Positions 15,377-63,376 of a DNA stretch of 64,000 nt are shown here, in pieces; the first letter of the stretch is position 1, and the number at the start of each line of letters is the position of its first letter. The stretch is taken from positions 186,001 through 250,000 of the forward strand of contig JAPEUD010000001.1 in the NCBI GenBank assembly GCA_026026165.1, read 5' to 3'. This DNA comes from Sarea resinae. Lineage: Eukaryota. A model generated the notes under the pieces. It saw only the letters and a program-made list of their open reading frames with translations. It had not been told where the DNA came from and made no database searches. The translations under genes and the position numbers were made by a program.

Positions 15377-18300
15377 TAACGGCCGCCCAACGGCTAAGGC
15401 CAGCCCTACCTTGTCTACCTAGGTAGGTAACTTGATCTTCCATCTTCTGCTCTATCTCTATCAATGACTGGAAGGTACCTCGATGTACTTTGTAGAGGAG
15501 TGATCTATGATTTTTGAATCCTTGACCGCCGATTGATTTCATCACTCAATGAATCATTTCGTCGAGTTCTTCTCGATCCATTATCACTCGCAAGGCGGTT
15601 CCCTCACGAGAAATCGAGTACGGACGTAAGAGACGGAGCTCCCGAGGGCACACGCCATCTCAGGTGTTAGACTCATCAGATACGCGCGGGTGATCCTCTG
15701 ATCGACATCGGCTTAGCACCGTGTCCCGCCCACTGGGCTCTCATTATGGCCTCAGCGGACTTTCGGTCATAAGCGATCGAAAGTCCAATGCGCTATCTTA
15801 CAAAGCAGCCTTGGAAGAGCAAGATCGTTATGACATCGGCTCAAACTAACAGACCAAAGCAAGGGATCGTTGAAATAGTCTTCAGCTGTTGACCACACCC
15901 TCGGAAATCTTCACGCGAGGAACCGTGACGGATTTGAGCTGTAGTCTCGCACCCCGTGGTACTGCGATCTGAATTTGCTGTCTCTGTCATGTTCAGCACT
16001 ATTCCATGACGCTGTCATTTGTCAGGCACCGCTGGAATCCAGATCCGGAAAGTCCAGCAAGATAGCTTTCATGATTACTTGACTTCTTTGCATGGTATCG
16101 CCCATGCCTGCTCAACTTCAGTAGCAGGGTTCTTGGGCTTGGGTGTTGGCAGTGTACTGCGTAAGGGTCCGAAACTCGAGATTGCTGCGCTGTATATCGG
16201 GCGTACACCAGTACATCTCTAAAAGGGGGAGACAGGACTTCGCCCTTCCCGATTCTACATAGCTCATTTACCCCCGTGATCCAATTACTAGGCATCGTAT
16301 CTTCTCGAGCTCAGAGCATAGTCGCAAAGTGAAATGGAATGCAGACGGCCAGCTGCGAAAGAGATATCGCCTAGGATGTTGTTTCGACGCTGGCAGGTTT
16401 GGTTGCTGGATCCGGAGTTGTGCTAGTCGCGCTACCCACGAGTAGGAGTAAGGCAGGTAAGGTCAGGTAGGTACTCCGCCATCCTTGATATGGATCTAGC
16501 CTGGCTCGCCTCGAGCATCTCCAAAACGTGGCATCTCGCCTACAAGCTGGCTTCAGAGAGCTCCCGGGTTTGGGGTGTGATGTTCTGATGCTTCGCTCTT
16601 CGCGCCATCTCGCGCCGGGGAACCTCAAGGCAGAGCCACATTCTGCCCCAAGGCCACAATGAGCGCTAACATTCAGAGAGTATGCCAAATGAACATCACA
16701 GGATCCCAGATCGGCTCTTGCCCTGATCGGCCCGTCTAATATGATGGGATGGCGTCCTCGCTAGCACTCCTTGGTGCTTCTCTCGGTCCTCAAATAGAGC
16801 AACAGAGAGGCTTGCGGCCCGACTCAAGTTCATTTGCGAACAGGGCCGTCTTCAGGCTGTCATGATAAGATAGACTATTGCGTATGATCTGTGGTTTCGA
16901 GATTGCTACTGTCAAGTGCTGTTTGTTGATCAGGGAAATGCATTACTGGAGAGGTTGGCAAAACGATACTACTCCATTCTCCACATTTCAGTCCACGCGA
17001 AACCTAGTGCCAACAGGGCGGGGAATCGGGAGGCTGAACTACCTTCATGTCTGTCCTAAGACCCAACACGAGTAGACGCGATTCATCTACAACCAACAAA
17101 ACCGGCCAAATCTGTCACGCTTCAAGGTTTCTATGGCGCTGGGTCTTGTTAGTACTCGAGAGACGGCTCTTAGCCCATATGCGGACTGCTTCGAGATCTC
17201 TTATCTATCCAACCACACACCTCCCTCTGTTAGCTAGAATACTTCGTTCCTTTAATCGTGGCTACCTCTTAGCCAACTGACTCCCTTGAAAGCAAGCCAT
17301 CCAGCTTTGCTCTGGGCTATTTCGCCTTAGCATGGTTGATCAATTTAGCTCTAGATGCGCTCGGAAACGATTCAGCCTATATTATACCCTCCTGCGATTT
17401 CCAGATTTACACTCCAGCGTGAATCATGCAGCTATGTGTTTTGGCACGACGAGAAATCACAGCCTGTAAATCTTGACGTGAATCATGTACGAAGTGCATC
17501 TCTAAGCTTCGGCCATTACAAAGAACACTAACACTCTTCGACAACGCAGGCTATGTTCGTGATTAGATTTACAGCTGATCCACAATTTTAGCCTCAAGGT
17601 GCAATCCAGTCATTTCTTCCCTTAGTCTTCCTCAGCTCTTAAGAGATCCGATAATAGAACTCGATTTCTGGCAAATTCCCCGACTAGCTTGTTGAGCAGG
17701 GCTTCGCTACTGCTGTACCCATCCCATACCTTCAAGCGAATCAACGCTGTCAGGGTCGTCCTTAATGGCCGTAAGTTCATGTAGACCGACAACATGAATA
17801 TGAGATGCCTATGCGTCCAAGGAGCGAGTATACGCCCTTGCCTCAACCTCGGAGAAGACCGAAAGCCTTACGCCTTGCATGGCGTAGAACACCGTTGACT
17901 TTGAGATACTGTCTCAAGGCTTTTTTACTTGAATGATAGAATCGGTACACTGGATACTTCGGGTTTACTCGAAGCCTTGGGCTAGTATGATACAAAACAT
18001 CGCGTTCCACAGGAATTGGAGGCCGTGATCCTCCTTGGTTGAAATCTTATCACGATCTCCACCATGTCGGAGCCCGCTGCACTGGCAGACAAGTTCTCGT
18101 GAGGATTTGACTCACCGTCCACTGCCGTCTGAAACTGGTCATATCTAGGCATCAATGATGGCAGGCTGCGGCTCCAGATTCGGGCATCTCACGTTTGCAT
18201 CGGCGATGGACGTTCGATGAGATTCCTGCGTTGGCAGCAATTAATTAATCATCTACACGATGATGCAAGTGTCTTGTCCTGCTGCAATATGGACTCGACC

Positions 18301-21300
18301 CGATCTACTGGGTCTCAGCCCTGCGGTAGAGTAAGTTGCAGTCCTACACAAGCTACGCTTCCTCGCACGAAAAGACCTTTCCAGACCATACACCGCAGAG
18401 CTGCATCTGGATTCATCTCAATTTCGGCGCCGTTGTGCTGTGGTGCGCTGCACTGCAGACTGACGTTCCCAGAAGACCCTCCCGAGCGGGCGTTATGCCT
18501 TAGAGAGGGGTTGCCTTGCAGAGGCGACCCCGTGCACCAGAGGTGTTTTCACGGTCGAAAGAGTCGACTCTTTCGTGCAACGCGAACCATAGGATACTGG
18601 TGATCGACCCCCCAAACTTTAAGCAGATTAGGTTGTGGCAGGCAACCATCATGACCGCCTTTGTGTCGAGTCCCGCTCTCTGAGGTTGAGAGATCTCGTA
18701 GGGCTGAGGCGGTCAAGGGCCTCGCTCAGACCCCGGTCCGTCAATTCGTAGCTGCGGAGAGAAGGTACCGCCGGTCTGGCTAACCCCCCAATTCGTGAAC
18801 AGACAATCTGTGCAAAGACGGTCGTAGTTGATCCAATGAATGATCGGGGTTAGCCAATGCCTCGGGAGCAAAACATTTTGATATCGATCCGACCAGGATT
18901 ATCCATCTCCTCTGCCACTTGAGCAGATACGTCCGTATATTCGTGCCACCGTAGCGCTCGCAACCCAAGTAGCCTGCTACCTACCTGCTCTATGCTACCG
19001 TCTCATTTTCCCCGTCCATCGACCGCAGTCCTCTGTAGCCACCAGAGACGACAGGCAGACAAGCAAACAAGCTTGGAAGATGGGTCGGGTCGACGAAACA
19101 GCCTCCAATCTGCCAAGAGTTGCTGTCACCCGAGGGGACCTCACCGCCTGTCCCTTTTACTTGCCTTCATGCATCTCGCCTGTCCTACTCCATCCACCAA
19201 GGATCGACGAATACATTCCTCGAGCCGCACAATAACCCCACAAGTCCGCGACGCTCTTGCTTTGCAGCCAGGATGATGAATACTACGTACACTACTATGT
19301 ACGTCTCCGGCACCAGGATGGTTGTCCCTGGGAGAAGCTCCGAACTGGATCTTCGCTCGCTTCCTATTGGGAGGAGTACCGGTCCGATAATCAAACGCCC
19401 GACCAACGGGCCGAGATATAGATCGCAACACAGTACATCAAATACCAATAGGTACCTGCCTGTGGAGGCATACGTACGCCGTCGGCCGCAGTTGGTAGTA
19501 TTCGTAAGGTAGTTGGGGCAGAACCTGGAAGAAGACCTCAGGCTACCTTCAAGACACCTTGAGCGACTCGAGTACGAATACGGAGGAGTCGAATACGCCG
19601 CCAGAGCAATCGAGGAGAAGGGCATCGAGAGCGAGGACCACAGCCCTATGGCAGAGAAGGGCGTCTCCCACAGGAGTAGAGACAAGCGAGATGGCAGAGC
19701 GGGCACGAAGTACCTGCAAGTACATTGCTCGAACCTTATTAGGCGTCCATGGATTCCAGCAATCTTCCAAGCATCAAGCCAACACCCCCCTATCCACGAC
19801 CACGACACGGTTACGAACGAGTCCAATCAGCCCCCCCAGCACCGTCATGTCAACCTGCAGAAGGGGTAAGAACCTTGAAGGACAGACTTGACCCCATTCG
19901 ACCATCTCGTGCATCGCATCGTGCAGGCAGGCGCATGTGCATGCAGGTCGCTTTGTCAGAAGTCCAGGGGGAGTGGCATTAGGGGCAGACGGCAGGGAAC
20001 TCTATTATTGAGCAGCATCGCGCTAACAAAGTAGATCCTGATGGATGATTTGATATCGTCGAGACAGAAACAACAAATTCATTTCCTGCCTCGATGCGAC
20101 CACCTTCGTTCCACCATTGGCGTCGATGGCCTCTAGCTATCGACGGAGTGCTCCGTACGAAAAGCGATGGGAGGATTGTGGACGTCGAGGTTGGTTTGCT
20201 AGCTCGGCCAGGATGTGGGCATCTACGCCTGGTCAGTGGGATCACGAAGCACCAAGGAGCACATGGCCTGCGAGCACGTCCTAGTGGCTGATCTACGATT
20301 CGATACAGTCTGGATGGCTCTCGTTTGCCCACAGGTCGTCCGTACGGAGAGTATCCTCAATGCGAATCTACTGACCATCTTCATGCCAGACTGATCCATT
20401 CTCTGACGTATCAGCTCAACACGATCAGCCCGGAAATTCTCTCGTCGTCTTCGGCGGCCCTGAGGGCGCGCATCGAGTCTTGTTGGCCTTCTTCCTCGCT
20501 CGCTTGGCATCGTTACGATTCGCTTCCAGCGTGCAAGCCTTCGCTACGCTCGCTTCGCCTCGAGAAGGGCGCCGCGCGGAGCGATCGGTGCGGGTTTGAT
20601 CGGGACGCTGACTGTGCGGCTGCGCTTGGTATCCCAATTTCCCAAGCTACTTGTGCCTAACCTGCTCAATACTAGAGGGTCCCCACTCTGCCGCCATAGC
20701 CACGATATGTGATGTATGGGCTTTTCGCTAGTAGGTCGATCTTCGACGACCAATCTTCTCTACCAAGAGTACTACGGAGTATTCGTAGACTGGTGGGAAT
20801 AAGGCAGCACGCGCGCACTTTTGGCTCGAGGCTGTCTCAACATGACCAAATCACCCAACTCTAGTTTGGCCCATACCAATATGATCTACCTGATCCGCCA
20901 TACTGCCACTGACCTCCTACGCAGCTTCATTTCTGGAGCGCGCGCACATGGACGACCAGGAACTCATTCCGAGGACCGCCTATCTCTTCCCCCCCACTCT
21001 CTCTAGCTTCTCGATTACGGTCCATCTATCAATCGCGTGCTACGCTGGTGCCAGGGCAGGCCGGGAGGGAGGTAGAGGCGCTTAGGGCTTCGGGCCACGC
21101 GCGCGCGCCCATGTAACTTCGTACTCGTCTGAGGCCACCTTTAGCCAGGCCGGCCGCCTTTAGGCGTTCGATAGGCGTTCCCGAGCGGAAGTCCCGAGAG
21201 AGAGAAAGAGAGGGGTTCGTTGCAGAGGGCAGAGCAGATGCGATTGCGAATCGGGAGCTGAGGGGAAAGCTCAGTGCGGACGAGGAGATGACTCGATGCG

Positions 21301-21609
21301 GTGACGACAATCAATCAATGGCTTGGCTTGCCTTGCGCCTGTGTGTGATCGAACGCTGCTCGCGGGTTGGCAGTCGGAAGCAAGCATGTTTGTGGAGAAG
21401 GGCTTCGGATCGGCCGGGTTGAGAAGATGCCCATTTCGTGTAAGGTGTCCTGTCTATCCTATCTAGTTGTGGTCATGTGGGATATCGCCACCTGGACGTC
21501 GAGGAGATAGGGGGATCGAGTCTGCCGTGGGACTGACTTGACGATGATATTGGTTTGACGACCTATCTGCTGGCCGAGACTGTATAGTACTGCATTGGCA
21601 ACAACATCT

Positions 21610-22183
21610 CTTGCGCTCTTAGAAGGCGAACAAACGGTAGAAAGAGAGCAAGCGGTAGAAAGGAAGCAAGCAGATATAAGACTGCTTGCTATAGTGATCC
21701 TAGTATTAGCTACAGTGTTATTGTTAGCCCTGCTACTCTATTCACTAGATATATAGCTAGCTAGAGCAATTCTCCTCTTAGTATCTCTTGTATTCTTATA
21801 TATAATAAGGAGAATAATTCTATAAGTAAAGGTAGCCTATATATTCTCTCTATTCTATTCTATCTGTCCTCTTTTTTCTCTCTTTCTACCTTTCTACCTA
21901 TTTCTCTTCTCTCTTCTCTCTCTCTATCTTTCTCTCTCTCTTTTCTTCTTACTTTCTTATCTATAACTATATCTATATCTTTATAATATCTATCCTAAGT
22001 TGACTTAACATCTACTAAAGAAAATAAGAAAGAAAAATAAAAGGATTTTCTACCTTAACTTTTTCTTTTGTCCTTATATTTTAGTAATAGCTAGAGAAAA
22101 GAGAGAAGAGAAGGGTTTTAATTACACTTAGTGTTTTAATATATAAGTGTATAAGTGTCTTCTAAAGTCTCTTAATACTCTCT

Positions 22184-22224
<41 letters not shown>

Positions 22225-22989
22225 TTTACCTTTTCTCTTTCTATAAGGTGCGCTGCGCTATATAGTAGGCAAATAGGTATAGCCTAGACGAGCTAGGTTA
22301 TAGTAGTCTTTTAGCGCATGTAGGAACAGGTTTGCCTATTTACTAGTCCTTACACTTTCTCTTTCTCTTTTTATTTTCTTCTTTTTCTTCTATTTAGATA
22401 ACACCTCTACTCTCTTCTACTCTCTTCTACTCTATTCTACTATACTCTACTATACTCTAACTTAAACTCTAAACCTCTTTATTCTCTCTCTCTATTCTCT
22501 TTCTCTTTCTCTCTCTCTACACTAAATATAGACCTTTAACTTCTCTCTAACTTAATCTTATCTCTCTCTTCTTACTAGCTCCTTTACTCTCTAGCCACCT
22601 CCTATAAACTCTATAAAGATAGACTAAGTAAAATAGGCACACCTATTCTTACCTTATATAAGCTACCTTATCTAAAAAAAAAGAAAGACTAATCTAGCCT
22701 ACTTTACCTAGGTAGGTAGGTAGCTTATCTAGGCTAGGCTGTACTTGTTTTGTTTTGCTTACTAGATAGGAGCGCGCTTTGTATTACCTCTTTTTCCTTC
22801 TTCTTCTTCTCTAGAAGTTTCTTAAGAAGAAAGAGGCTTAGAGAGTCTAGATAGAGAAAGAGTTAGAAAAGAGAAGGAAAGATTAAGAAGAGAGGTAGAA
22901 GAGAGTTAGATATTAGTAGAGGTAGAGGTAGATGTGTACTTAGAGGGTTTTCTTAGAGGATAATAGTAGAGAGGTAGAAAGATAATAAA

Positions 22990-23031
<42 letters not shown>

Positions 23032-23440
23032 AAGTAAGTAGATAGGTATAGAAGAGGTAAGTAGGTAGGTAAGTAGGTAGGTAGGTAGATATAAGAGAGA
23101 GAGAGAGATATTAAAAAGGTATTTAGGTAGATAGAAGAGAGGATAAGACTAGAATTATATAATATAATGTGATCTTATATAGTATAGTAAACTTTACTCT
23201 ATGTTTCTTCTGATTAGGTTTGTTTCTGCTTAGAGGTAGTAGGTAGTAGGTAGTAGTAGCTTGTAGAAGAGAGGAGAGAAAGTAACAAGTAATGTAGAAG
23301 ATAGAGAGAAGATAGAGAGGAGAGAAGAAGAGCGAGAAGAGCGAAAAGAAGAGAAGAGCGAGGAGAAAGAAAGAGAGAAAGGAGAAGAGAGAAAAAAAGG
23401 ACAGCAAAGAGATATAATATAATAGTCTTTGAAATTAGGG
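21610..23440. repeat. AT-rich, TpA-rich island with RIP-like signature, built largely of simple repeats
   Basis: Abrupt GC drop, many TA dinucleotides and stops, near absence of TCA/CCA/TCG/CCG and their complements; contains (CTATCTCTCT)n near 22185-22223, (CTACTCTCTT)n near 22407-22458, (GA)n near 22996-23027, (GGTA)n. Confidence 0.85.
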
Positions 23441-23724
23441 CACTAGAACAAAGCCGAAGCAGCACAGCACATGGTTATACGGATTCTGAATACGCAGTCC
23501 GGACATCGAGAAGAGAACAACAACAAAAACAAAGAGGACGACGAGAACGAAAGCACATCAAGCATCAAGCATCAAGCCAGGCCAGGCCGAGCCACCGAAA
23601 CAAGCAGGCAAGCAGGCAAGCAGCCCAGCCGGTTCGCAGCAAGACCTCCCCGCCCCCCTCGACCCCAACACACATAGACACTCTCGTGAACTGAGCCCCC
23701 GTCCCATCATCCCGATAAACGGAA

Positions 23725-24873
23725 CTATCCGCCCTCCTTGACCCCGTTCGTATCCATCGGACTCCCACCGCCACCAGTCCCCTGCTGTCTCCTTCTCCTG
23801 ATCGGCGCCTTCTTCCTCCGCTCGACTGCGCCCTCGGCCTCGGCCGCTGCCGCTCCACCGCCCTCTTCCATCTCCTCGTCGCCATCCTCGTCCTCTCCGT
23901 CCTCGCCACTATCCATATGAAACAGCCTCCACTCATCCAGCTCGTTCATATCGGCCGGTCGGTCCCTGAGCCACCTCATGCGGGGCCCGCTCCGTGCCCG
24001 CTCGCTCACCCTGAACCCGTATATCCGCGGCTCGTACACTTTACCCTGGCCCAAGCCGGGGGCAAGATTCGACGTCAGCACACCGTTCACATTGAGAGGC
24101 TGCCCCGGCGGCGGTGCGGATGGCACGGAACCTGCTGGAAGTGCATTAGAAAGATCCGAGCGCGGAGGAGGGGCAGTAGTAGAAGAAGAGTGATGCTGGT
24201 CAGGCCGGGGCACGGGTAGGACAGACAGACCATCTGCGCGAGCGCCGACGTCGATTTCTGGGAACGTCATGAAGAAGAGACAGCCGAACGTGGTGCCAAA
24301 AAAGGCTCCATCGACTGATTGGAATCGGCTGTTGGGTGGCGTGTAGACGTCGAGGCACGACGGACAGAATAACTTGACGGTTTCCTGGCCGGGCGTGTCG
24401 CTGCAGCCGACGGGCAGGACTCGGCAACCGTTGCAGTAGACGCGCGGGCAGACGCCAAAGTGTTGAAGTTCGTACTTCTCGGCCATTTGCTGGATGCCTG
24501 GTCGAGAGGTGATGTAGCGTTGGTGGATGAGGCCGTAGAGGAGCTCGGCGGACGATTCGATGACGCTGAGGTCGCTCGCGACGCGGGCATGGCGACGCTC
24601 GCTGGCTCGACGATAGCCACCGGGCCGGTCGTCGCCCAGCCCTTCATCCTCGTCATCGTCATCGTCGTCATCTTCCTCGTCGTCCTCGTCCTCGGGCTCG
24701 ACGTCAAGGATCATCTCCAACGCCTCCTTGTACATGGGCACCTGTGACGACAGCCCCGTCAGGTTGAAGTCATCCTCTATAAAGTCCTCAGAAACCTCCG
24801 CAAAGTATTCATGGCCAAGCAGCGAGCAGAATGACGTGATCCACGACTCGGGCGCGGGCGAGGACGAAGACAT
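23725..24873 (-). CDS. CKB1: Casein kinase II regulatory subunit beta (CKB1 type), intronless, 382 aa
   Basis: MSSSS..ESWITSFCSLLGHEYFAEVSEDFIEDDFNLTGL, acidic loop, SAELLYGLIHQRYI, zinc finger CPRVYC..CPSC, DGAFFGTTF, YEPRIYGFRV. Confidence 0.95.
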   Translation of the reverse strand: MSSSSPAPESWITSFCSLLGHEYFAEVSEDFIEDDFNLTGLSSQVPMYKEALEMILDVEPEDEDDEEDDDDDDDEDEGLGDDRPGGYRRASERRHARVASDLSVIESSAELLYGLIHQRYITSRPGIQQMAEKYELQHFGVCPRVYCNGCRVLPVGCSDTPGQETVKLFCPSCLDVYTPPNSRFQSVDGAFFGTTFGCLFFMTFPEIDVGARADGLSVLPVPRPDQHHSSSTTAPPPRSDLSNALPAGSVPSAPPPGQPLNVNGVLTSNLAPGLGQGKVYEPRIYGFRVSERARSGPRMRWLRDRPADMNELDEWRLFHMDSGEDGEDEDGDEEMEEGGGAAAAEAEGAVERRKKAPIRRRRQQGTGGGGSPMDTNGVKEGG

Positions 24874-25953
24874 GACGTCCAGGTCGGAAGAAGCGACAAG
24901 TTCGCTGGACTCGTCGTCCGAGCGGAGACTCAGGCTCTCGACGCCTGTGACGAGGTCCTCTTGGAGTGGCGACACGGCGAAGAGTGAACGGCTTCCCGGG
25001 AATGATCGCGTTGATTGGGGGTATTGAGATCTCTCGATCCGCCTCTACCACGTGGCCCTTCTAGCCAGCGTACGATAATATTTTCTTGATGATAGCCCTT
25101 CAGGTATGCGCGGAGGGTCCGTAAGATTTTCTGTGTGGGCCAGTGTGACGGCGCGCTAGACGGATGGGTTCAGTAGAAGAAAGCCGTTGAGCATGCAGAT
25201 TGACGAGTAGATGCTATGCTCTGCTGAGCTGAGCTGTGCTGAGCTGAACTGAATTGGCTGAAATACAAGTAGATGGCCACTGATCCTATTCAAAGAGTCG
25301 AAATCCAAGTCTATTACTGCTGCTGTTGCTGCTGCTTCTTCGTTGCGTCGTTGACGGCCGATGCAGACTCCAGTCTCGCGACACTGATCGGGCGAGATTG
25401 TGGACAGAGAGGGGGGAGCAGATTTTAGCGACAAGAGTGAGGAGGCCGTGGGCAATCCAGCAAGGCAAAGATGAATCTATGAGGAGATTGCCGCATGGGT
25501 TTGTGATGTTTTGGTTGTTTTCGTTTGCATTGATCGTTGATCGTTGGGAAATGTTGGTGGTGAGTCCAGGTTTGCATGCGCGCGCTGATGCGTGTGTGCC
25601 GTCAGCTGCCAACGACTGAGGCGGGCACGTTTTGTGGCTGTGGCTGGTGCCCCCATGCCCCACTACATAATAAGGTATTTAGTGCCTCGGGCTTTCCGAC
25701 GCATGGGCTGGATTCACCCTTCCGTTCCAAATCAGCCACAATTCCATGGTAAAGGAGTCTGGTGAATTCCCGTCATCGATGCTACTTTTATTTGTATTTC
25801 TAGAGAGAAACAATCATCGATATGTACTATTTACTTCCTTCACCATGGCCAACCTGGTCCAAATCTACTCGCAAGGGTCGAGGACCCGATGGTATCTCAA
25901 ATTCCCAGATAACAAAAGAAGGCATCCCCAAACCTAAACAACCGAATGCCACT

Positions 25954-53321: not shown

Positions 53322-53960
53322 CAGAGAGTATAATCCGTTACCTTTTTTTTTTTTTTTTCTTATTTCTTTCTCTCCTGTGCCAATCCAATCAGAGGATAGA
53401 CAAGAGTAGAACTTGTAAGGGTCTAGAGAGATATATGTATCTTGTTTTGTGTTTTGATCTTTCTTCTTTTTAGGGTTTTCTTTTCGTTTTTCTGTCTGAG
53501 GGGTCTGAGGGGTGGAGAGAGGTAGAGAGGAGTTGAGTGCAGAGAGTAAAGAGGAGAGTAGATTTGAAGAGAAGAGGTAGACTAAGGTAGACTAAGGTAA
53601 GGTAGGGTAGGGTAGGGTAGGGTAGGGTAGAGGGGCTTAGTTGTGATGATGATAATAATAATAATGATAAATGATAACAATGGGGATAGGAATCGGGATA
53701 GGGATAGGGATAGGGATAGGGATAATAACGATAATAGGCGTAGGGATACTAACAATGTGAGTGACGACAATAGCGAACGCGCGATACGATGGGATCCTAG
53801 TCCTCAAACAAGTCCTTCCTATTATCATTTCTATTTCCTATCCCATTCTTTCTTTATTCTCTTACTTTCTATTCGTTCTATTTTCTTCTTTTCTTCTTTT
53901 CTTCTTTTCTTCTTTTCTTCTTTTCTTCTTTTCTTCTTTTCTTCGATAACATATACAGTC
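53270..53960. repeat. Microsatellite field between convergent genes
   Basis: (GCCAGA)8 near 53278-53327, poly-T, (GGGTA)~6 near 53601-53630, (GAT/AAT)n near 53645-53675, (GGGATA)~5 near 53695-53724, 21-nt T/C unit x3 near 53881-53943. Confidence 0.9.
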
Positions 53961-54221
53961 CCTCTCTTAGCCATCCTGCTATCTGACCATCTATTCCAAA
54001 CACTTCTATCCGTAGCAGGTTTCCTTCCCACTTCCACTTGTTCCAAGCACCGAGTACTGATTTCGGAGAGGAAATCAAACATAACACGTACGGCGCCAGC
54101 ACCAGCACCAACACACGCACACACGCGCTTGTATCATCCAACAGTCACGCCTATAGCTGTGGCGTGCTTACAATGCTTACAATACACAACACATTTACGA
54201 AATCCATCTCTCTCTACCGCT

Positions 54222-60974: not shown

Positions 60975-61858
60975 TTCCGTGTCGGAAGCCAGAAGGATGG
61001 ATAGATAAATTAGAGTAAAATCAGGGCGTGAGCCGGTGTCAAATGGACATGCATTCAATTACTGTACTTGTGATCTGAATGGAGAGATAGACTACAGCGG
61101 TTGAGTGTCTGCGCAAGACATGATGGCTTCTGTTTTGCTTTCGCCGCCAAAATAATCATGTTTCATTTCATGCTTGGCTGGGTTCTGCTTGGCTCGGGCT
61201 CTGGCTCTCTCTTCCGCTGGTTACGGCTGGCTGGCTGGCTTGCTGGCTGGCTTGCAGGGTACGTTTGTATGTAGGTATGTAATGTAGGTATGTATGTAGG
61301 TGGCCAGTTCACATTAGGTGGGCGTGCACGTAGAAGATAGGAGATAGATAGATGGATAGATGGATGGATGGATGGATCATTCAGGGTGGGGGGTGTTTTG
61401 TTGTTTGACTGATTGATTGTTTGTTTGTCTGGTTGCACTAGCTGGTCTGGTCTGGTCTGGTCTGGTCTGGTCTGGTCTGGTCTGGTCTGGTCTGGTCTGC
61501 CTGCCTGCCTGCCTGCCTGGCCTGCCTGTCTGCCCGCCTGACCGGCTGGATGGATGGATGGCTGAATGGTGGTAGCGGTGGTAGTGGTAGGATAGTGTGT
61601 TCGCTGTAAGGCCGGCCCTTGGTCGAATAGGTGTGGGGTGGGCCTAGAAGGGGCTTGGTGGTGGTGGCGGAAAGGAGGACGGAAGAGAGCAAGCGGAAAG
61701 AGAGTGAATGATGAAACCAATGGGGCGCAAGTGTGCAGTATGGATGGATGGATGGAAGAAGTGACGCTGGATGCTGGACTGCAGTTGAATAGAAAAATTG
61801 GACGGGTAGGTGGATAGGGAGGACGGTAGGTTGGTAGGAAGGGAGGAAGGCTGGGTGG
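60740..61858. repeat. Microsatellite field between convergent genes
   Basis: (ATC)~15 near 60927-60974, (GGCT)n near 61225-61250, (GATA/GATG)n near 61343-61377, (TGGTC)11 near 61444-61498, (GCCT)n near 61499-61527. Confidence 0.9.
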
Positions 61859-63376
61859 TTATATCTTGACGCTGGATTTCGAAAAGCAAGGTATAGTTAG
61901 CCATGTCTCCGGCACAAGATCGCGGAGGTCAAGTCCAAAAGCCAAAAAAGGGGGAAACGTGCCTCCATGGATGTTCCTCGTCGCCATATTGAATGCCCTC
62001 GATCCAGCCCTTCATCCTGGCCGCCAACTCGCCGGCCTCCTCGTCCTCCTTCAACCCACAGCTCACCAAGCGGCCCTTCCAGCTGATGGCGCGAACAGGG
62101 CTCACGACGGCGGCGGTCCCGGCGCCAAACGCCTCGATCAGTCGGCCCTCGTCCGCCGCCTCGGCCAGCTCTGCCATAGTGTACTTTCGCTCCGTGACCG
62201 CCCAGCCCTCGGGCACAAGCCGCTCTCGAGCGAGCGCGAGGATCGAGTCGCGCGTGACGCCTTCCAGGATGGTGCCGTCCAGAGGCGCGGTCAAGAGTTC
62301 CTTCTGGCCCGTCTGCTTGTTGATTACGGCCGCGAAGAAGTTCATCGTCCCCACCTCGGTCACGTAGTCCTTTTCGCCGAACAGCCAGAGGTTCTGGTGG
62401 AAGCCGCGGGCGGCTGCTTGCAGTTGCGGCACGATGCACGGCGCGTAGTTGGCGCCGAGCTTTTTGTCGCCCACGCCGCCGGGCCAGGCGCGCACGGCGT
62501 AATCGGTCGCTTCGAGCGAGACGGCTTTGAATCCCGTCGGGTAGTAGGGGCCTACTGGGGAGGCGATTACGTAGAGCAGGGCGCTGCCTGGAGGGCCGAC
62601 GCCGAGCGTGCGTTGTGTGCCGATTGCAGTGGGGCGTAGGTAGAGGGAGTAGCCGCGGGCACTATGTCTTTGAGATTAGATTTTTTGGCTGCTGGGAGGA
62701 TGTTATGTGTGGAAGGGATGTTTGGAAAGAGGGGGAATTGTTGATTGTTGGTGGCTTGCTTACGCGGGGATGAAGCGTTCTTCAAGTTTCACGAATTTGG
62801 AGAGCACGTCCATGAAGGCGGGGCCGTCGAACGTCGGCAGGGCAATGCGTGCGCAGGACTTGTTGAGACGAGCCATGTTCTTGTCGGGGCGAAAGAGGCG
62901 GATGTTGCCTTGCTTGTCCTTGTAGGCTTTCATTCCCTCGAAGCACTCGAAGGCGTAATGGAAGACGCAGGTTGCGGGGTCGAGACTCAGGTTCTGGTAG
63001 GGGGTGATTCGCGGTGCGAGCCAGCCTTCTGAGGCCGTCCATTCGATGGAGAGCATGTGGTCTGGCGGATTTGAGACAGATGTTAGCGGATGCTGCTGGC
63101 TGACGGAGATCAAGTTTACAAACCGGTAAAAGTCCGGCCAAAGACGAGTTGTTCTGGCGGGGAGAGCTCTGACGGGGTGGTGGTCTTTGCGATCGAGAGC
63201 TTGGAAGAGTCAATGCCTGGCAGCTGCGACTGTGCCGGTGAGTCCACCTGGACGCTATAGAGTCTGCGTGCTTGGGAGACATAGCGGAGTGAAGCCAGCT
63301 GGGGAAGGCTGCGGCTTGCTCGTGTGGGGACGGTGACGGTGGAGGCGGGTAGCCTCCTGAGGCATTGACGGAGCAT
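61859..63376 (-). CDS. BAT1: Branched-chain amino acid aminotransferase, mitochondrial precursor; exons 63376-63124, 63061-62764, 62661-61963, 61871-61859
   Basis: Presequence MLRQCLRRL.., [48 protein letters not shown] (PLP Lys), [23 protein letters not shown]; last intron is GC-AG. Confidence 0.96.

Follow-up and report, generated by a model that had tools for sequence, protein, structure and literature searches.

Several C-to-T mutators of fungal repeats have been described. [quoted passage not shown] In Trichoderma reesei, CpA and CpG are reported as similar targets, each above CpT and CpC (PMC5496416). In Zymoseptoria tritici, Dim2-dependent mitotic C-to-T change is described at CpA only, with CG spared (PMC8016269). 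Pucciniomycotina (Microbotryum, Puccinia, Melampsora, Rhodotorula) show TpCpG hypermutation in aligned transposon copies (PMC3318451), and basidiomycetes of this TCG type are described as being without RID and Dim-2 (PMC4352252). From 2- to 4-mers in 1,239 genomes, a survey published in 2025 concluded that a preference for CpA is common to RIP-like defences (PMC12543289). Here we describe a hypermutated AT-rich island at 21653..23453 of a 64,000-nucleotide stretch of Sarea resinae (contig JAPEUD010000001.1, positions 186,001 to 250,000), which we call the window and to which positions refer. Cytosines of the island were lost mainly in the YCR context (Y, pyrimidine; R, purine; N, any base). 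We read the island as the footprint of RIP-type genome defence, a RID/DIM-2-type variant of RIP, with a probability of about 0.58.

The island was delimited as a maximal-scoring segment with a model for which mutated transposon copies had served as training set, and the same model gave no other such segment in the window. YCR sites fell from 12-16 per 100 bp outside the island to 0-1 inside. In its saturated core (21781..23160, GC 0.328), a trinucleotide count of both strands left 3 YCR against 39 RCR sites. The surviving NCA sites were ACA 21, GCA 7, TCA 1 and CCA 1, and the surviving NCG sites were GCG 10, ACG 1, TCG 1 and CCG 0. A preliminary description had counted by eye 28 RCA against 2 YCA sites in the core, with five of six CpG in GCGC, and both counts were exact. 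The sole TCA was the TGA at 22001, and the sole CCA was at 22595. The GCGC sites were at 22251, 22256, 22315, 22773 and 22775. The sixth CpG was in ACGA at 22289, which reads TCG on the minus strand. The tract had also been called pyrimidine-rich on one strand. This applied to the left part of the + strand only; the right part was purine-rich, and the + strand of the core held 238 C and 215 G.

The loss of YCA persisted after correction for mono- and dinucleotide composition, and this check did not refute the preliminary description. First-order expectation for the core was 19.2 YCA against 2 observed. Dinucleotide-preserving shuffles gave a mean of 19.1 (sd 2.5), and none of 2,000 had 2 or fewer. 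For YCG the shuffle mean was 7.7, and the observed value of 1 or fewer was reached in 1 of 2,000. Over 21610-23440, 7 YCA were observed against a shuffle mean of 34.2, and no shuffle of 2,000 was that low. Outside the island, every NCA and NCG of the window was within about 16% of expectation.

A genome search with the island showed that only a short element (about 110 bp) was dispersed, in addition to low-complexity matches. The island is therefore single-copy apart from this element, and it is not a transposon body. The window copy of the element (113 bp, 22242..22354, + strand) differed from its sister copy L213 by 11 C-to-T or G-to-A changes, of which YCR sites accounted for 7 and RCR sites for 4. 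This comparison proves directly both that mutation of the island took place on site and that the rule amounts to a preference. The proposal that RCA and RCG are kept was mostly right, but this copy carried changes at GCA, ACA and ACG as well.

The context was measured between transposon copies in the genome (25.5 Mb, 143 contigs). Reverse transcriptase (RT) loci were chosen by Pfam, not by composition. Among 25 such loci, 21 were CCR-depleted and 4 were apparently unmutated. Copies were compared in pairs, and only sites with unchanged neighbours were counted. Sites lost in both copies are unseen in this design, which therefore underestimates how often the best targets were hit. The clean young pair L085/L086 had 336 transitions and 2 transversions. 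C-to-T change was found in 51/98 CCA (0.52), 29/74 CCG (0.39), 65/252 TCA (0.26) and 25/185 TCG (0.14). At RCR it was found in 19/310 ACA, 8/373 GCA, 1/125 ACG and 0/198 GCG (0-0.06). Elsewhere, CCC gave 7/88, and the remaining NCC and NCT contexts were at 0.02 or below. Unequal rates at ACA/GCA and TCA/CCA, on which the first proposal depended, were thus seen in aligned repeat copies. The pair L079/L080, of which one part was diverged (219 transversions), gave CCA 0.54, CCG 0.51, TCA 0.28, TCG 0.18 and RCR 0.01-0.04.

Other pairs agreed with this order. Transitions to transversions were 336:2, 360:2, 183:4, 211:1 and 42:0 in five clean pairs, and 588:219 in a sixth, partly diverged pair. The YCR/RCR odds ratio was above 1 in all 11 independent pairs (2.3-18), with p<0.01 in 10 of them. 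The closest pair, L080/L083, carried 42 transitions and no transversion, with 37 changes in YCR and 1 in RCR at sites with unchanged neighbours. By block bootstrap, the YCR/RCR rate ratio was 9.7 (7.6-13.2) for L085/L086 and 60 (12-179) for L080/L083. It was 2-3.4 in three old pairs in which YCR was nearly exhausted, and RCR sites of old copies were mutated to 0.2-0.5. Divergence of the closest pair was uneven: in L080:1-5604 against L083, about 4,600 bp were identical and 31 transitions followed over the last 1,000 bp, a result of either gene conversion or collapsed assembly. As a separate observation, L042, L056, L058, L059 and L062 had unmutated RT and DDE frames of up to 2102 aa; these loci are perhaps single-copy, recent or domesticated. 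Two gypsy elements of 7.4 kb (L087:1894-9273 and L088:703-8083) had two 310-bp long terminal repeats (LTRs) that were 94.5% and 97.7% identical, with heavily mutated bodies.

A logistic model fitted to 15,809 sites, of which 1,733 had changed, separated the effect of each neighbouring base. At -1, the odds relative to A were 26.9 for C, 5.5 for T and 0.55 for G. At +1 they were 0.74 for G, 0.03 for C and 0.01 for T, and at +2 they were 0.31 for C and 1.74 for T. Gypsy families and a second RT family gave matching results. The ranking is therefore C > T >> A > G at -1 and A or G at +1, with protection by C at +2, and it is graded and genome-wide; of this we are practically certain. The preliminary description had proposed a C-to-T mutator of YpCpR. 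Its preference was borne out by the aligned copies, but its strict rule was not, because C at -1 exceeded T about fivefold in odds and +2 had an effect. The survivors in the island fit the graded rule, since the protective C at +2 was present in 9 of 21 ACA and in all 10 GCG sites of the core. In 300 kb of contig, 11 mutated segments together kept 26 CCR, 107 TCR and 445 RCR, a count that is not independent since the model that found them already holds the bias. Mutation was confined to repeats and their near flanks, with one segment in the window and 21 of 25 RT loci mutated, and genes were unaffected.

This signature was compared with the known mutators. It was like RIP of Neurospora and Pezizomycotina in the directional C-to-T change in repeats, TpA gain, stop-riddled retrotransposons, the presence of RID and DIM-2, and mutated non-repeated flanks. 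It differed from Neurospora, compared by dinucleotide order, in that CpA and CpG were similar, CpT was spared and the -1 base dominated, and no single-strand clusters were seen. CpA dominance without a strong 5' rule, the Neurospora type, was not found, as in both of the youngest long pairs CCG (0.39-0.51) exceeded TCA (0.26-0.28) as well as ACA (0.04-0.06). We do not class the signature as Neurospora-type RIP because its context differs and its premeiotic timing is an assumption. The T. reesei pattern was alike in having CpA and CpG above CpT and CpC, and the accessible part of that source mentions no effect of the 5' base. Z. tritici was alike in repeat-restricted C-to-T change tied to a fungal methyltransferase, again with no 5' rule in the accessible part of the source. 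It differed in that CpG was mutated here (CCG 29/74 and TCG 25/185 in L085/L086). The TpCpG mutation of Pucciniomycotina was similar in its trinucleotide target, its 5' pyrimidine and its appearance in aligned transposon copies. However, the target there is described as strictly TCG, whereas here TCG was hit least among the four YCR contexts.

No report of a CCR>TCR>>RCR context was found in the literature searched, which was largely without subscription papers, and Clutterbuck 2011 could already record 5' effects. The accessible parts of PMC6180176, PMC6963459, PMC12994199, PMC5555474 and 10.1101/2022.03.13.484164 gave no 5' context for RIP. Sarea was absent from the main text of the 2025 survey as far as that text was available, and its supplements may bear on novelty (PMC12543289).

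We looked for the enzymes that could produce such a context. We found genes for two RID-like proteins (L032, L033), two DIM-2-like ones (L031, L034) and one that is DNMT5-like (L035). These family names were taken from homologue labels, and they also assume the motifs that we take to be typical of each family. The motif IV Cys was kept in RID L033 and in DIM-2 L031. In the METHYLTRANSFERASE paralogues, it was replaced by Tyr in L032 (RID-like; G000:C70) and by Ser in L034 (DIM-2-like; G000:C72). It was kept in 120/120 RID homologues and in 119/120 DIM-2 homologues, the exception being P0327. Both L032 and L034 had long open frames with normal YCR content. These Cys-less paralogues may possibly be DNMT3L-like partners, and a part for them in target choice would be speculation. 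A MAT1-1-1 box with an open frame was present, and only a MAT1-1-1 gene was found in the genome. In one of the RID genes, exon 1 was 99.6% identical over 546 aa to P0121, which is labelled Sarea resinae, so that this filamentous ascomycete belongs to that species or to a very close one. The best named matches of one window protein, at about 69-72%, were in Pleopsidium, Geoglossum, Lasallia and Sclerophora.

Directional C-to-T change, repeat restriction, the context ranking, and intact RID, DIM-2 and MAT1-1-1 genes were thus observed in this genome. In the RIP variant that we favour, a cytosine methyltransferase system of the RID/DIM-2 family would mark repeated DNA, and marked C would become T. 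The choice of target would read both flanks, with A or G needed at +1, C preferred over T and far over A and G at -1, and C at +2 protective. Loss would then proceed from CCR to TCR, with RCR last, which would explain why an old island keeps mostly RCA and RCG. The process would be premeiotic, would act over many sexual rounds and would hit both strands. Local repeats, namely the short element and facing simple-sequence tracts, would draw the mutator to the single-copy island, and DIM-2-type spread into the flanks would widen it. This last route, by local repeats plus element and then flank spread, is weakly suggested. A RID/DIM-2-type process is favoured because mutation is restricted to repeats, consists almost purely of transitions and needs a 3' purine.

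Several results weigh against this RIP variant. Run tests found too few runs in 0 of 23 cases (z -1.4 to +2.4), with no strand-exclusive clusters, and neighbouring changes were on the same strand in 834/1601. Mutation was absent from four of the RT loci and from one locus with a DDE frame. The island ranked first of 370 windows for facing purine/pyrimidine tracts, a feature that transitions cannot create, but the windows ranked 2-4 were unmutated, and the tracts were rejected as a sufficient trigger. L087, the sole full-length element with a clean flank, leaked over about 100-300 bp only, whereas in the window the mutated DNA extends 590 and 1100 bp from the short element. Long leakage from a former full-length element is a possible origin of the island, to which this single clean flank gives no support. 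As for the interleaved strands, many rounds of RIP would hide single-strand runs, and a mitotic Dim2 mutator would explain them too.

Such a mutator, linked to heterochromatin as in Z. tritici, would act gradually in vegetative cells on repeats and AT-rich islands, with a 5' preference of its own. Strands were interleaved even in the closest pair L080/L083, the island is mostly single-copy so that homology pairing is not obviously required, the genome has two DIM-2 genes, and Z. tritici offers a precedent (PMC8016269). However, CG in Z. tritici is described as methylated and not highly mutated (PMC8016269), and CCG was among the top targets here. Repeated RIP rounds would probably erase strand runs as well. 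We consider the mitotic process possible but less probable than RIP.

Damage and editing were also weighed. Ultraviolet (UV) photoproducts at dipyrimidines on methylated repeats would draw the 3' purine and the repeat restriction from methylation and the 5' pyrimidine from the dimer. The mutated C was indeed the 3' base of a dipyrimidine in 41/42 changes of the closest pair. The UV signature of CC>TT tandems and TCC/TCT targets was not found, though: CC>TT was seen in 4/768 changed CC sites, and TCC and TCT were nearly spared (0.00-0.06). RCR was mutated in old copies, and C at -1 was stronger than T, the opposite of UV photochemistry, which favours T over C at this position. This explanation was very unlikely. 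The strong C at -1 also resembles APOBEC3G, which prefers CC, and a cytidine deaminase of this kind could edit retroelement DNA during reverse transcription. But the two strands were mutated about equally, single-copy flanks were mutated, and the need for A or G at +1 suits methyltransferase contexts, so that editing was just as improbable as UV damage. Composition of low-complexity, microsatellite-rich DNA deserved almost no credence. The island is rich in simple repeats, but the shuffles did not reproduce the YCA loss, the same ranking was found in complex transposon sequence, and the short element was mutated in place as a reporter. The aligned-copy rates refuted an artefact of composition.

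We then considered the anatomy of the island and why this spot was mutated. The family of the short element ends in TG...CA with a short terminal inverted repeat. The window copy is flanked by a 5-bp target-site duplication, with the left copy at 22237..22241 and an identical right copy at 22355..22359 (+ strand). From its TG...CA ends, terminal inverted repeat and 5-bp duplication, we take the element to be a putative solo LTR. It is like solo LTRs of fungal LTR retrotransposons in these three features, but it is very short (113-122 bp), and no parent was found among 52 element-bearing loci searched, which are part of the elements of the genome. The window copy and 44 other places were examined, and the genome search gave more than 100 candidates. 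Ends were readable in 26 copies, of which 13 had a perfect 5-bp duplication and 6 more had one with a single mismatch. An Rfam scan of 21000-24000 gave 5 weak matches, each below the gathering score, and a known RNA was rejected as the identity of the short repeat.

Among the 45 distinct copies, 9 in islands of more than 400 bp carried 7-14 C-to-T changes, counted against one of the other 36, which carried 0-9. The element alone is no trigger, because 36/45 copies lie outside islands. Close inverted pairs of the element were in islands in 2/2 cases, and four more distant or direct groups were not. Most lone 113-bp copies were little mutated, though it is a lone copy that sits in the window island. 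Pyrimidine-rich simple-sequence tracts at 21845..22593 (+ strand) and purine-rich ones at 22842..23419 (+ strand) form the left and right arms of imperfect inverted repeats. The arms were 41-70 nt, with 70-90% complementarity between left and right tracts. Simple repeats by themselves do not attract mutation, since the simple-repeat-rich stretches at 53600-54000 and 61000-61900 of the window kept normal YCR content. The repeat (TAGG)n was rejected as a product of the mutator, having 721 matches genome-wide, mostly in unmutated DNA. At 30 loci examined, besides the two in the island, just one other place had a short, weak mutated segment.

The boundary of the island is marked by an unmutated neighbour outside it, a stop-to-stop frame for casein kinase II beta at 23725..25044 on the - strand (PF01214, E 5e-68), which ends about 270 bp from the island and has normal YCR density. 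Seven of 8 frames near the island had no Pfam match, and on the left side (18000-21600, about 3.5 kb) none of 7 frames had one.

When metagenomes were scanned with a mutated RT motif, at least 121 loci matched. Full flanks were available for 80 of them, from 24 source records, and 49 of these 80 came from two sources. Among the matches listed, 48/49 loci of the two main sources (e.g. L089, L101) lost TCA most, and TCG was highest among CpG; aligned pairs of the larger source gave TCA 0.95, ACA 0.82, CCA 0.76 and GCA 0.54. About 12 other loci listed had lost all CpA regardless of the 5' base and were saturated and uninformative, and about 10 were CpG-poor or unmutated. L092 matched the S. resinae profile, with YCA 0 against RCA 62 and YCG 23 against RCG 105. 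The pattern is therefore not private to one genome. L159 and the short loci L191 and L206 were Y-biased at CpA. The mutated RT loci L094, L121 and L151 had lost nearly all CpC (3 left in L094) and kept TCG and RCA, which is a further context type. Metagenome organisms thus show no, T-only or Y-type 5' bias, and the 5' base is variable in RIP-like mutation.

The context also affected detection. It had been proposed that dinucleotide indices would mischaracterise this mutator. This was true of the mutated retrotransposon copies, of which 8/8 tested had a substrate index of 0.78-1.13, above the cut-off of 0.7 (PMC7296669). It was not true of the island, which was flagged (TpA/ApT 2.04, substrate 0.27). 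Since RCA sites survive, genomes of this kind hold more mutated repeats than the substrate index reports. The YCR/RCR ratio was 0.22-0.88 in the 8 mutated copies against 1.17-1.53 in 4 unmutated ones. Surveys at the dinucleotide level pool distinct mutators as 'CpA RIP'.

It is unsettled how RIP converts C to T and which of RID and DIM-2 selects the sites. In young copies the 5' base has a 10- to 60-fold effect, a fingerprint like that of an enzyme, which could be matched to methylomes or swapped between species. The 5' base might be an evolvable specificity axis of ascomycete RIP, with none, T-only, C>T and CpC types by lineage. It would be set here by duplicated writers, in which the Cys-less RID and DIM-2 paralogues would act as DNMT3L-like partners steering the active enzymes to CCR and TCR. 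We regard this as unlikely, but if true, it would open a direct way to the protein that selects the targets of RIP. The three-letter preference, missed by the two-letter description of RIP, may help to show which enzyme picks them.
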